64,000 nt of DNA from Escherichia phage 235Ecol030PP. Position numbers and translations under genes: made by a program. The notes below the pieces were generated by a model. It saw nothing but the letters and a program-made list of their open reading frames with translations, had not been told where the DNA came from and searched no databases. Positions within the stretch are counted from its first letter, which is position 1, and each line of letters begins with the position of its first letter. Where the stretch lies: the sequence record PP355091.1; one strand, written 5' to 3'. Below, in pieces: positions 17,486 through 21,976 of the stretch.

Positions 17486-17489
17486 CAAT

Positions 17490-17520
17490 GGGGACCTTTC
17501 GGTCCCCATATTTTTATTTA
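17490..17520 (+). terminator. Intrinsic terminator after gene 54
   Basis: ggggacc-tttc-ggtcccc then atatttttattta. Confidence 0.7.
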
Positions 17521-17804
17521 CGGAATGAAATGAAAGCAGCAACTGAAGCAACTAAACTGTCTTCAATATAAACTTCAATTTTTACCGGAGCTTCTGACTC
17601 AAATTTACCTGTTACTACACCCTGAAAAATACTTTCAGTCTGTTCTGGCTTTGAAAAATTTTCAGAAGGAAAAATTCCAAACTTTTTATCTGTTCCGAAA
17701 ATTTTGATAAATTCATCATAAACCGCTTCGTTAAAAGCATTATCAGCAGGAATAACGCCTTCAACTACAAGTTCTTGACCTAAAAAGCGTAAAGAAGATT
17801 TCAT
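17514..17804 (-). CDS. Hypothetical protein (position of a T4 alt-upstream ORF)
   Basis: 96 aa ORF preceded by early promoter cassette and GAGGA Shine-Dalgarno. Confidence 0.5.
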   Translation of the reverse strand: MKSSLRFLGQELVVEGVIPADNAFNEAVYDEFIKIFGTDKKFGIFPSENFSKPEQTESIFQGVVTGKFESEAPVKIEVYIEDSLVASVAAFISFRK

Positions 17805-17835
17805 TTTGTGTTCCTCATGTTATGTCAGTAAGACT

Positions 17836-17865
17836 ACTATAACACAACACGAGGGACTTGTAAAC
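17836..17865 (-). promoter_or_regulatory. Early (sigma70-type) promoter for the 17514..17804 ORF
   Basis: - strand GTTTACA, 17-18 nt spacer, TATAGT; promoter plus leader nearly identical to the alc upstream region. Confidence 0.5.
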
Positions 17866-17879
17866 TACATTTTGAACTT

Positions 17880-18222
17880 TTTAGTACGCGTAATAGGCAT
17901 GCGTCGATTTTATACTGTTTCATTGTTTGAAGAGCAGTATCAAAACAGCATTAATGACACCAATTGGATTTCCACCCAAGTTTTTAAGCTTAACTAATGA
18001 TAGTTTCTCATTAACACCTATCATTACGATATGCATCATTTTGTCGCCTGGTTTAACGTTTTATCTGTATCACCGCCAGAGGTGTATGTACAAAATCTAA
18101 ATCCAGGAAGCACGCTTTCTTCGCCGGCTTGAATAGCAAAAATTTGAGGTATTTTATGCTTAGGATTTAAGTTAACAACCGGCGCCGAAGCGCCGTCAAA
18201 TAATTATGTAATAAGTTCCATG
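17880..18222 (-). pseudogene. Decayed duplicate of the alt 5' end (about first 100 codons)
   Basis: - strand translates MELIT*LFDGASAPVVNLNPKHKIPQIFAIQAGEESVLPGFRFCTYTSGGDTDK..., homologous to the Alt N-terminus but with stop at codon 6 and a later frameshift. Confidence 0.55.
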
Positions 18223-18224
18223 AT

Positions 18225-20276
18225 TTATCCTTGAACGAACTTGTAAGGCATGTTTGCAATATCTATGCAAGACGCAATAATTCCAAGAGATGATTCTACT
18301 TTCTGTTTAACATTTGATGAAACAAATGATGCAAAGTCAACTCTATCTTCTATATCACCTGTCATTGTAACCAATTCACCAGTTTCCATTAAATGGTCTC
18401 CGTCATAGATTACCGATTCGGTGAGTTCTTCTGTGGTCATAACTTCAGCTTGAATAAGCTTGTTGTTAGTTCTAACTGTTCCATCGTTGTAAGATGCATC
18501 GGTTATTTTATTAACTTTGACCATTAATCCACGTGGCAAAATGACTTCCATTTCATTTGAAGGCGCTAAACTTCCACCGGGTAAAACAACATTGACCTTA
18601 TCAGCCCCAGTAATAACCCATCCAATTCCAACTAAATTATCGCTAGAATTTACTAGTCCTTCATCAGTTTTATCAATAGAAACACTTAGACGCTTTTCGT
18701 CTGGTAAAACACCTATAGATGAATCAGTCATCCAAGTACCAAAAATATTTGGATATAATGATGTTGACACAAAGTTTCTAAAATAAAAAACTCGATTTTT
18801 TACCATTGCTTCATATATTGAAGGTAACATTCGTTGTGAACGATACAAAGTAATACCTTTTGGTAATCGTTCACCATTTTTAAAGGCTGAATCTAAATTA
18901 TCAATGGCTTGTTCTATTTCAGGTGCTGTTAAAATACTTGTACGCTCATCTGGATTATATAATCCCAAAAGAGCATTATTTATGTCTACATATCCTGAAC
19001 CTACATATTCACGAATTCCGCGTTTTTGCGCTGGCGTGTATTTAGATGAATCTTTATTTTCGACTATAGGATGTAATGACCATCCAGCGGTAAGAGCATA
19101 TCCACGTAATTCTCTTCGAATAATCTTTGTTTTTATTGCATTCCAAGAATTTTGTACTAACTCATTTGCAGCATCTTGGTTTAAATGCGAATGTCTGTTA
19201 ATATTTCTTTCAAACCAGGCACCTTTATATTTTTCTAAAGTATCATCGACGATAGAAGCAATAGTTTCTAAAGTTTTTATTGAAGTAATAGATTCTTTTC
19301 GTAATTTTTCTAAAGCTTTATTTTTTATTTCTGCATTAATAATGGATTCTTTATCTTCAGGAATTATAGAAGCTTCTCTGAATGCCATCCCAGCTGTAAC
19401 ACTGCTAAGAGCATTCTCTAGTGCAAATCCTGAAGTAGAAATTACCGTTAATTCATTAGAATCAGAAATTAAAGGCGCGTCCGCTGGTTTATTTAATTCT
19501 GCCGCTGAAGCCTCAAATTTTTGAAACATCGGTGTTTCAAATCTAGAAGATTCCAATGACTGACTTTGTGCAATTGCTCTACGGGAAATTTTAACTTTAA
19601 CGATTACAGCTTGGTCAGAACGTTTATCATTTTCTTGCGCAATAGATGCTGCAATTGCCTCATTTTTAGTTACTTGGGCTCCAGTATCTTTATTGATATA
19701 AACATCACCGACCTTCGATTCAACTTTAGTAAAGAGCTCGGTACTAATTTCCGGAACTCCTGGAATGTCTTCTAGTGATACATTTTTGCGATGTATAAGA
19801 ATATATGCATACTTTTTATCATAATCCCAGAGTTCCTTAAGAAGGACGTATCTGCCACCTGAACGACTACGGATAAGTCTATCAGCAATAACTTGAATTT
19901 GTCGAGCTTGACCAGCGGTTTTAGACTTAAGAATACGAAGCATACAGGCATCAATTTTATACTGACGCATCGTTTGCATTGCAACAGTAAAAACTGAATT
20001 GATATAATTAATTGGGCTTGGACCAAGACCTTTCAATTTAGCAATTGAACCTTTAGCGGTTAATGTAAAAGGAACAATATGCATCATTTTATCGCCCATC
20101 TTTAAATCACGATTAGTATCACCTCCAGATGTATAGGTACATAAACGAAAGCCTGGTTGTTCAATTGCGTCATCAACATGAACTGAAAAAATTTGCGGTA
20201 TTTTCTTCTTTGGATTTAAGTTTGTAATCGGAAGAGTAGTATCTTCGTCAAATAATTCTGTAATTAGTTCCATCAT
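18225..20276 (-). CDS. alt: Alt ADP-ribosyltransferase (packaged internal head protein)
   Basis: 683 aa (T4 Alt 682 aa); position after gene 54. Confidence 0.9.
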   Translation of the reverse strand: MMELITELFDEDTTLPITNLNPKKKIPQIFSVHVDDAIEQPGFRLCTYTSGGDTNRDLKMGDKMMHIVPFTLTAKGSIAKLKGLGPSPINYINSVFTVAMQTMRQYKIDACMLRILKSKTAGQARQIQVIADRLIRSRSGGRYVLLKELWDYDKKYAYILIHRKNVSLEDIPGVPEISTELFTKVESKVGDVYINKDTGAQVTKNEAIAASIAQENDKRSDQAVIVKVKISRRAIAQSQSLESSRFETPMFQKFEASAAELNKPADAPLISDSNELTVISTSGFALENALSSVTAGMAFREASIIPEDKESIINAEIKNKALEKLRKESITSIKTLETIASIVDDTLEKYKGAWFERNINRHSHLNQDAANELVQNSWNAIKTKIIRRELRGYALTAGWSLHPIVENKDSSKYTPAQKRGIREYVGSGYVDINNALLGLYNPDERTSILTAPEIEQAIDNLDSAFKNGERLPKGITLYRSQRMLPSIYEAMVKNRVFYFRNFVSTSLYPNIFGTWMTDSSIGVLPDEKRLSVSIDKTDEGLVNSSDNLVGIGWVITGADKVNVVLPGGSLAPSNEMEVILPRGLMVKVNKITDASYNDGTVRTNNKLIQAEVMTTEELTESVIYDGDHLMETGELVTMTGDIEDRVDFASFVSSNVKQKVESSLGIIASCIDIANMPYKFVQG

Positions 20277-20327: not shown

Positions 20328-20516
20328 TTAGTAATCTAGCGGTAAGAGAGTACGATATATTTCAAACTTTGGTCCTTTTTCATAGGCATCAAATGTTTCT
20401 GTGAATTTATTATAAGCGTATGCATCTACAAATTCGAGAATGACTTGTGATACAGAAGTAGAAACATCTCCACCTTCTTTTTGAGCAATGACAATTGTTT
20501 CTAAGTAAGCTTTCAT
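20328..20516 (-). CDS. Hypothetical protein (position of T4 alt.-1)
   Basis: 62 aa; start overlaps gene 30 stop. Confidence 0.5.
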   Translation of the reverse strand: MKAYLETIVIAQKEGGDVSTSVSQVILEFVDAYAYNKFTETFDAYEKGPKFEIYRTLLPLDY

Positions 20517-21976
20517 AGACCAGTTACCTCATGAAAATCACCAAATACATCTTCGAATGTATTAGCTTTAGTTTTATCTTCGCGTAAACGAATCGCAATC
20601 GGAAGAAATAATTTAACGTAATCAGTGCGGCCATCAGATTTTAACCAACCGTTGCATTCGCACTCTAGAATTTTTCCAATATAATAATTTTGGTTTTCCA
20701 TAATGCGAGTACGGTCAAGTTCATGCGATTTTACACCGGCTTTATCTTTTAAGCCTGAACCAGCATTTACCTTAATTTTTCCACACTCTGACTCAAGAAT
20801 AAATCCACCTGCTTTAGTAGGGTCTTTACGGTGAGGATAAATTCCTACAATTTTTAAATCAACATCAATTACTTCTTTAAATTTATAGAGATTTTTTGAA
20901 CGAGCATTTTCCCATAATCCATCGATATTTTTGAGAATAATACCTTCAAGACCTTGGTCAATATACTTTTTATAAATTACCTTAGCTTCATCTAGGTTAT
21001 TTACTACCTGGTTTTCAATTAAAATTACTTTATCATAGCCTGATGTCATTTGTTCTAGTTTAGAAAAACGTACATCATACTTTAAACGAAATGCAGGAAG
21101 ACCATATATTTCTACTAATGGAACATAATCCCAGACCTGAAACTTCATGCATTGTGCTTCTTTTTCAGAAATGGTTCCCTTTAAAGATTTATTAGCGATT
21201 CCATTAGAAGTAGTACGTGATTCAGCTACTTCGGCGAATTCTTTGGCTTTACTAATTTCAGGATAAGCATCAAAAAGAAAATCTAGGCCTTCTGGCTCCT
21301 TTTTAACTTGCTCATGGTATACCAATTCGCCATCAATTAACACGCCTTCTGGATGAATCTGGCGGGCTTCAGTGGTCATTTTGATTAATTCTTCCTTAAG
21401 AAGATCTAATCCTAGATATTCATTACCGGCTCGTGATAAAAGACGAACATCATCTAATTCATCACCTCTGACTTCGGCAAAGCACCGAGCCCCATCAGCT
21501 TTTAACTGAGCAAAGGCTGGAAATTTGATATTCTTATTAATGCCTTTTTCATCATAAGAACTTGCAAGCATTTGAGGTTGTTCAGGAATTAAACCTGGCC
21601 AAACTTTGTTTGCAATAGATACTGAAGCACCACATTCAAGGTCTCGCATCATCACTCGACGCAAAACTTCAACATCATCTTTTTTACCGTCAGTAATATA
21701 TCCAGTTAATTCCTCAATTGCCACATTTCCAGTCAATTTCCGAGTAGCTAATGTGAATTCAATGAAGTCAAGCATATCGGTAAGAGTCAACATTCCAAAA
21801 CTCTGGGTAGCAATACCAGGTTTAGGCCATTTCTTGATATAATACTGCAACCCACGAGAATAAGTCAGACGATATACTCGTTTAAGCAATTCATTATCTT
21901 TATTCTTTTCAAGAATTGCTTGCTTCTGCTTAGTTGAACCAATAGATGCTATTTCGTTCAGAATTTTAAGAATCAT
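20513..21976 (-). CDS. 30: ATP-dependent DNA ligase gp30
   Basis: 487 aa equals T4 DNA ligase; adenylation motif KADGAR. Confidence 0.92.
   Translation of the reverse strand: MILKILNEIASIGSTKQKQAILEKNKDNELLKRVYRLTYSRGLQYYIKKWPKPGIATQSFGMLTLTDMLDFIEFTLATRKLTGNVAIEELTGYITDGKKDDVEVLRRVMMRDLECGASVSIANKVWPGLIPEQPQMLASSYDEKGINKNIKFPAFAQLKADGARCFAEVRGDELDDVRLLSRAGNEYLGLDLLKEELIKMTTEARQIHPEGVLIDGELVYHEQVKKEPEGLDFLFDAYPEISKAKEFAEVAESRTTSNGIANKSLKGTISEKEAQCMKFQVWDYVPLVEIYGLPAFRLKYDVRFSKLEQMTSGYDKVILIENQVVNNLDEAKVIYKKYIDQGLEGIILKNIDGLWENARSKNLYKFKEVIDVDLKIVGIYPHRKDPTKAGGFILESECGKIKVNAGSGLKDKAGVKSHELDRTRIMENQNYYIGKILECECNGWLKSDGRTDYVKLFLPIAIRLREDKTKANTFEDVFGDFHEVTGL

Follow-up and report, generated by a model that had tools for sequence, protein, structure and literature searches.

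Remains of a second, divergent Alt-like gene downstream of alt in the T4-like Escherichia phage 235Ecol030PP, a probable pseudogene corresponding to T4 alt.-1 and alt.-2

Phage T4 carries two small open reading frames, alt.-1 (T4p199) and alt.-2 (T4p198; NC_000866, positions 123065..123450), between the ADP-ribosyltransferase gene alt and alt.-3. In the T4 RefSeq record a note states, in part, that the pair 'reflect an old duplication of the first part of gene alt, into which a stop codon and new …', and the paralogous alt duplications tabulated by Nolan et al. (2006) include 'T4 ORFs alt.-1 alt.-2' (PMC1524935). Tandem duplication of alt, either full-length or partial, is recurrent in T4-like phages, as in 44RRORF187c/188c and RB49ORF183c (PMC1524935); these examples come from distant genera, and we liken them to the locus described here by description rather than by sequence. 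Annotations in closer relatives are similar. In Yersinia phage fPS-2, g192c is described as 'similar to N-terminal of RNA polymerase-ADP-ribosyltransferase Alt; putative pseudogene', and the annotation of a full-length gene in phage Sf21 states that its 'N-terminus is similar to phage T4 Alt.-1'. The element that we describe is thus a real, ordinary and already recognised pseudogene; what we add is the exact deletion junction with its repeats, the direction of the truncation (which is not a partial duplication), a census of the disabling lesions, and a test of neutrality.

We analysed a 64,000-nt stretch of the genome of Escherichia phage 235Ecol030PP (PP355091.1), referred to here as the window. 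Its gene order is that of T4, gene for gene, and the source phage is T4-like (Tequatrovirus). Genes for DNA ligase, alt.1, alt, the relic and alt.-3 follow one another on the - strand, and gp54 and gp48 then lie on the + strand. The relic occupies the alt strand between the alt stop codon and alt.-3, which is the location of alt.-1 and alt.-2 in T4. The features of the locus are:

20513..21976, - strand: DNA ligase gene (gp30).
20328..20516, - strand: alt.1.
18225..20276, - strand: alt, which encodes the resident packaged ADP-ribosyltransferase (683 aa when counted from the first ATG in the list of open reading frames); it lies outside the relic and is the reference for comparison.
17876..18221, - strand: putative pseudogene covering the opening ~116 codons of a second Alt-like paralog, equivalent to T4 alt.-1 plus alt.-2, with one nonsense codon and two frameshifts.
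17514..17804, - strand: alt.-3, 96 aa, a DUF5498 protein (Pfam E = 1e-64); the intact downstream neighbour, which anchors the position of the relic.

The resident Alt matches the Pfam ADPrib_exo_Tox family (E = 8e-35), and its amino acid identity to T4 Alt is 94-100% in each 60-column block of the alignment. Its reading frame opens with two ATG codons in tandem (20271-20276, - strand; MMELITE…); the T4 annotation begins at the second (MELITE…), and IME537 and e11/2 annotate a gene of 2052 nt (683 codons), like that in the window. We note that Alt is mosaic among Tequatroviruses: the type shared by the window and T4 is 98-100% identical to the RB68 type (L004:2904-4997) over residues 1-240 and near the C-terminus, with only 24-45% identity at alignment columns ~240-420 and ~540-600, which suggests that the middle of the protein and part of its catalytic region may undergo cassette-like exchange or diversifying evolution. 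Two further observations concern alt.-3. A hairpin between the convergent alt.-3 and gp54 genes (GGGGACC-GAAA-GGTCCCC, 17488-17509) has a terminator-like score on both strands, and in T4 and SNUABM01 the stem is kept with the loop apparently flipped (CTTTCG vs CGAAAG). Mutations that extend the C-terminus of alt.-3 have been reported as T4 escape mutations from the CmdTAC defence system (PMC11618068).

Directly past the alt stop, positions 18221..18204 of the - strand read ATG GAA CTT ATT ACA TAA, and frame 0 encodes MELIT, a stop, then LFDGASAPVVNLNPKHKIPQIFAIQAGEESVLPGFRFCTYTSGGDTDKTLNQATK and a further stop. Homology to alt extends from the ATG at 18221 to 17876 and is distributed over three frames, the other two of which contain …GDKMMHIVMIGVNEKLSLVKLKNLGGNPIGVINAV and FDTALQTMKQYKIDACLLRVLKSS. 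A local DNA alignment of 17805..18224 with alt scores 107, compared to 23.9 +/- 2.7 (maximum 35) for 200 shuffles, and the translated segment aligns with the Alt N-terminal region. Compared with positions 123033..123453 of T4, nucleotide identity is 97.4% over 420 nt, and the two phages share the locus, the deletion junction and the split of the reading frame at a run of A residues. They differ in that both small frames are open in T4 (61 and 67 codons), whereas in the window alt.-1 is interrupted by the TAA and alt.-2 is cut to 39 codons by a -1 change in a T-run. The lesions and the codons that they affect are listed below, with counts that refer to 23 remnants (the window, 20 GenBank phages and two IMG/VR contigs).

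18204..18206, - strand: TAA nonsense codon at codon 6, replacing the Glu codon of the MELITE propeptide; GAA in T4 and in all intact paralogs; 14/23 remnants.
18059..18062, - strand: A-run reduced from five to four bases, a -1 frameshift near codon 54 that creates the alt.-1/alt.-2 split of T4; 19/23 remnants.
18034..18039, - strand: ATGATG, a Met pair in the ancestral frame (…GDKMMHIV…); after the A-run shift its internal TGA closes alt.-1 and an ATG is the annotated start of alt.-2.
17942..17945, - strand: T-run reduced from five to four bases, a second -1 frameshift, near codon 93, shortening the 67-aa alt.-2 frame of the T4 type to 39 aa; 4/23 remnants.

A reading made from the sequence alone had placed a decayed duplicate of the alt 5' end at 17880..18222, with a - strand product beginning MELIT and a stop, evident homology to the Alt N-terminus, a stop at codon 6, and a frameshift about 60 codons in. 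These elements stand. The limits are essentially right, the translation matches, the stop is the TAA at 18206..18204, and the frameshift is the 1-nt loss in the A-run at 18062..18059; the second, T-run loss had escaped notice. The similarity also survives alignment to the alt 5' end, far above shuffled sequences.

The same reading had called the Alt N-terminus the capsid-targeting region, which is plausible. Alt has an N-terminal propeptide of about seven residues that is removed by the gp21 protease, with cleavage after Glu (PMC9026906, a review of L. Black's work), and MELITE is identical in Alt, the intact paralog and T4 Alt.-1. A capsid-targeting sequence proper has been demonstrated for IPIII and not for Alt (PMC9958956; PMC9026906), and one review states that this sequence is not conserved in other core proteins (PMC9958956). 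In the window the gp21 cleavage motif (L/I-x-E) is incomplete: MELIT is present, and the Glu codon is TAA.

An intact second Alt-like gene is present in related phages. RB68 has a complete 2058-nt gene between alt and alt.-3, labelled 'alt.-2' (RB68_196), whose 685-aa product contains an ADPrib_exo_Tox domain at residues 416-620 and is homologous to Alt along its full length (41% amino acid identity), with the first ~240 residues far better conserved. A 2058-nt gene lies at exactly the position of the relic in RB14 (RB14ORF194), Sf21 (gp189), P8, G29 and phiD1 (g200), and two IMG/VR contigs match the paralog over its full length, giving eight intact paralogs verified singly. These genes bear out the proposal that the segment is a decaying remnant of a second gene for an Alt paralog. 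They resemble the relic in position, in the junction with the alt stop upstream, in the promoter-like site and alt.-3 downstream, and in the first 116 codons (~96% nucleotide identity), and differ from it in encoding a 685-aa product with the ADPrib_exo_Tox domain, under purifying selection, whereas the window lacks 1,699 bp that include the catalytic domain. The relic retains codons 1-~116 only, and the catalytic domain (PF03496) is not present in it.

The intact form appears to be the more common one. A tblastn search with the repaired 118-aa relic peptide found Alt-like genes in 1,176 phage records; a single unbroken match at 90-95% identity was obtained in ~414 records, where the annotated features are Alt-like ADP-ribosyltransferases. 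Judged from patterns of coverage, with eight long forms verified individually, ~90 of 502 matching records have the remnant form and ~400 the longer form. The panel of remnants and paralogs consists mainly of GenBank phage records; in IMG/VR the junction pattern was found in two contigs only, and the paralog protein at three intact or partial loci only.

Alignment of the RB68 paralog with the window, T4, fPS-2 and SNUABM01 reveals one gap, bounded by a short direct repeat:

17876..17884, - strand: deletion junction, the lone remaining copy of a 9-bp direct repeat, CTAAAAAGT; 1,699 bp of the paralog are gone.
17836..17864, - strand: promoter-like site TTTACA-17-TATAGT with an upstream TG, of sigma-70/T4-early type, placed to drive alt.-3 (10/12 matches in the scan).

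In the RB68 paralog CTAAAAAGT occurs twice, at codons ~113-116 (L004 5340) and 19 nt before the stop codon (L004 7039), and the junction is identical in 23/23 remnants. It is out of frame, so that the stump reads through 15 arbitrary codons to a TAG (17839..17837) inside the -10 hexamer. The main lesion is this 1,699-bp deletion, which removed the catalytic domain, and the stop codon and frameshifts are secondary. The promoter-like site lies 3' of the deletion, is conserved downstream of the intact RB68 paralog, and is annotated as 'promoter' in phage Lutter. As the sole promoter-like site of alt.-3, directly 3' of the junction, it may have limited where the deletion could end.

The secondary lesions vary among the remnants. 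SYGD1 and AV121 have an unbroken 128-aa open reading frame, annotated in both, which is the state expected right after the deletion. The A-run loss is absent from these two, from fPS-2 and SG1, and from the intact paralogs, and the T-run loss occurs outside the window only in PD112, CE1 and IME537, all of which annotate the same 120-nt (39-aa) open reading frame. Other indels are private: a 7-bp tandem duplication in HY03, a 9-bp deletion in F1, and a -1 change in the A-run at the junction in F25. The six independent lesions occur in mosaic combinations: T4 has the A-run loss without the TAA, fPS-2 and SG1 have the TAA without the A-run loss, and the window has all three of its lesions, a set (TAA, A-run -1, T-run -1) found in only three other copies of the panel. 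These combinations require either recombination or recurrent mutation. Phage fPS-2 thus has the same remnant as the window, with the same junction and codon-6 stop, but with neither homopolymer frameshift, and a 93-aa internal open reading frame is annotated there.

Patterns of substitution separate the remnants from the intact genes. Over the same 116 codons, the eight intact paralogs differ by 40 synonymous and two nonsynonymous changes, and are under strong purifying selection. Polymorphisms among the remnants fall 7/6/23 across the three codon positions, a third-position bias; 20 of them also segregate in the intact genes, 19 being synonymous, as expected if they were imported by recombination. 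The variants specific to remnants, which were called against only eight intact genes and form a small sample (n=16), comprise 12 nonsynonymous and 4 synonymous changes that fall 5/5/6 across the codon positions. This agrees with the 21.6% synonymous changes expected at random (p = 0.47) and departs strongly from the pattern in the intact genes (Fisher p = 1.6e-7). We considered purifying selection acting on the remnant and rejected it, because the third-position bias vanished once variants common to the intact genes were set apart, an explanation of the bias that assumes recombination. No fixed differences between remnants and intact genes were found, as would be consistent with either of two processes that this sample does not separate, continuing exchange and repeated occurrence of the deletion.

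These patterns bear on whether the small reading frames are genes in their own right. Alt.-1 (61 aa), Alt.-2 (67 aa) or the 128-aa form could be functional proteins that are packaged, that rival Alt for packaging, or that act in host takeover, and that have been lost in the window. The frames are open in T4, T4_ev151, e11/2 and Pu-Krd-SF5, and the 128-aa frame in SYGD1 and AV121; the MELITE propeptide is that of Alt (PMC9026906), and an AAGGA Shine-Dalgarno sequence for the remnant ATG is kept within the 3' end of alt. Nonetheless, we regard functional small genes as very improbable: the codon-6 stop and the A-run frameshift are widespread (14/23 and 19/23) and other lesions are private, the remnant-specific substitutions are neutral, and the out-of-frame tail is arbitrary and runs into a -10 hexamer.

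The wording of the T4 note ('duplication of the first part of gene alt') describes a different origin, in which a tandem copy was made of no more than the initial ~350 bp of the resident alt and then diverged, with no full second gene at any time in this lineage; alignment of the remnant to the alt 5' end is in line with this. However, the relic is 96.2% identical in nucleotide sequence to the 5' end of the full-length RB68 paralog, with two gaps that correspond to the two frameshifts, and only 72.1% identical to the window's own alt. Moreover, the 80 nt past the junction are 98.8% identical to the 3' end of the paralog and its downstream spacer, and the same 9-bp repeat is present at both breakpoints in the intact gene. 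Because the stump is far nearer to the RB68 paralog than to its own alt, it is not a copy of the resident alt 5' end. Homology to Alt extends over the whole paralog, its C-terminal 570 aa included, so that the full-length form is likely ancestral; a later insertion of the ~2-kb paralog into an existing stump would require those 570 aa to be unrelated to Alt. Partial duplication is thus highly improbable, and the description of the segment as a duplicate of the alt 5' end, which the sequence-only reading shared with the T4 annotation, does not hold; rather, the segment appears from these comparisons to be the remains of a second, old and divergent paralog, whose intact representative is 41% identical to Alt as a protein. 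Finally, although homopolymer runs are prone to error on some platforms and hold two of the three lesions, it is exceedingly improbable that the stop and the frameshifts are sequencing or assembly errors concealing intact, T4-like alt.-1 and alt.-2 frames, because the same alleles recur in independent isolates (the TAA, a substitution, in 14 independent records; the T-run allele also in PD112, CE1 and IME537, from different laboratories and countries; and the A-run allele in the T4 reference itself), and with all three repaired the reading frame would still be without the 1,699 bp that include the catalytic domain.

The segment also contains a conspicuous secondary structure:

18180..18195, - strand: hairpin CGGCGC-TTCG-GCGCCG, a perfect 6-bp GC stem with a UUCG tetraloop, in former codons 9-14 and 26 nt past the remnant ATG.

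It is present in both the minimum free energy and centroid folds, is invariant in 23/23 remnants, and is found also in the RB68 paralog, where it encodes G-A-S-A-P. It has no T-tract and was not called as a terminator by the terminator scan; its 81-nt context folds no better than shuffled sequences (z = -1.1), and a search of the segment against Rfam yielded no family near threshold. A cis-acting RNA role for the segment was rejected on these grounds, and because the hairpin, being coding sequence in the paralog, predates the deletion. The hairpin might stabilise the 3' end of the alt mRNA. Moreover, ~350 bp are retained in ~90 genomes, with the hairpin and the downstream promoter invariant or nearly so, and parts of the segment may have some cis role.

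Taken together, we consider, with a probability of about 0.9, that the segment is a pseudogene without function and represents the 5' stump of a divergent second gene for an Alt-type ADP-ribosyltransferase. The source gene is intact and constrained elsewhere, the copy in the window carries disabling lesions, and substitutions since inactivation (16 variants) are neutral. The homology, the deletion junction, the lesions with their distribution and the neutral pattern of substitution were observed directly, and a lack of expression or function is what they would predict. Today the relic is probably transcribed passively between alt and alt.-3, and nothing more.

A plausible history, in which we infer the order of events, begins with an ancestral state still found in most Tequatroviruses, with two tandem Alt-like genes between DNA ligase/alt.1 and alt.-3. 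A deletion between the two copies of CTAAAAAGT, through slippage or microhomology-mediated recombination, would then have taken codons ~117-679 and fused the stump out of frame to the final 19 nt of the gene, sparing the promoter region of alt.-3. Released from selection, the stump would have gained disabling mutations, chiefly at homopolymer runs, and recombination among co-infecting phages could have reshuffled these lesions and brought in silent polymorphism from intact genes. Two things may account for retention of the stump, the tolerance of T4-type genomes for some junk and the adjacency of its 3' edge to the putative promoter of alt.-3.

The tandem pair has also collapsed in another way at the same locus. 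Phage ECML-134 (NC_025449; L007:5001-7061) has a single alt gene (ECML134_194), an in-frame chimera in which residues 1-~150 match RB68-type Alt at 100% identity and those from ~180 to the C-terminus match the RB68 paralog at 98-100%, with the crossover in a region where the paralogs are 75-85% identical. Judged from this structure, it is a second, independent route of collapse: homologous unequal crossover would have given a chimera in ECML-134, whereas a microhomology deletion would have left a dead stump in the window.

Two modest points follow. The T4 entry would be better worded to describe what a 3' truncation has left of a divergent, full-length paralog, and for reading frames of the alt.-1/alt.-2 type in Tequatrovirus genomes 'pseudogene fragment' is a more fitting label than 'ADP-ribosyltransferase' or 'hypothetical protein'. 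T4, the reference phage, is without a second Alt-like enzyme that purifying selection maintains in most of its relatives, and this enzyme is a reasonable target for studies of injected proteins that act in host takeover. In the literature searched we found no study of the targets of the second paralog, and Alt goes unmentioned in a 2025 paper on injected phage proteins.

At least two events have collapsed the tandem pair, one being the 1,699-bp deletion that the window shares with T4 and the other the fusion that produced the ECML-134 chimera, and loss of the second enzyme might therefore be selected and not just tolerated, for example if a host defence senses the enzyme or if it competes with Alt for space in the head. 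We think this unlikely, and offer it as a speculation; in a weaker variant, the 128-aa or 61-aa N-terminal peptide may still enter heads where its reading frame is open. If loss is indeed selected, T4 would be a natural knockout of an Alt-like ADP-ribosyltransferase, putatively packaged and injected, that is kept by ~80% of its sequenced close relatives.
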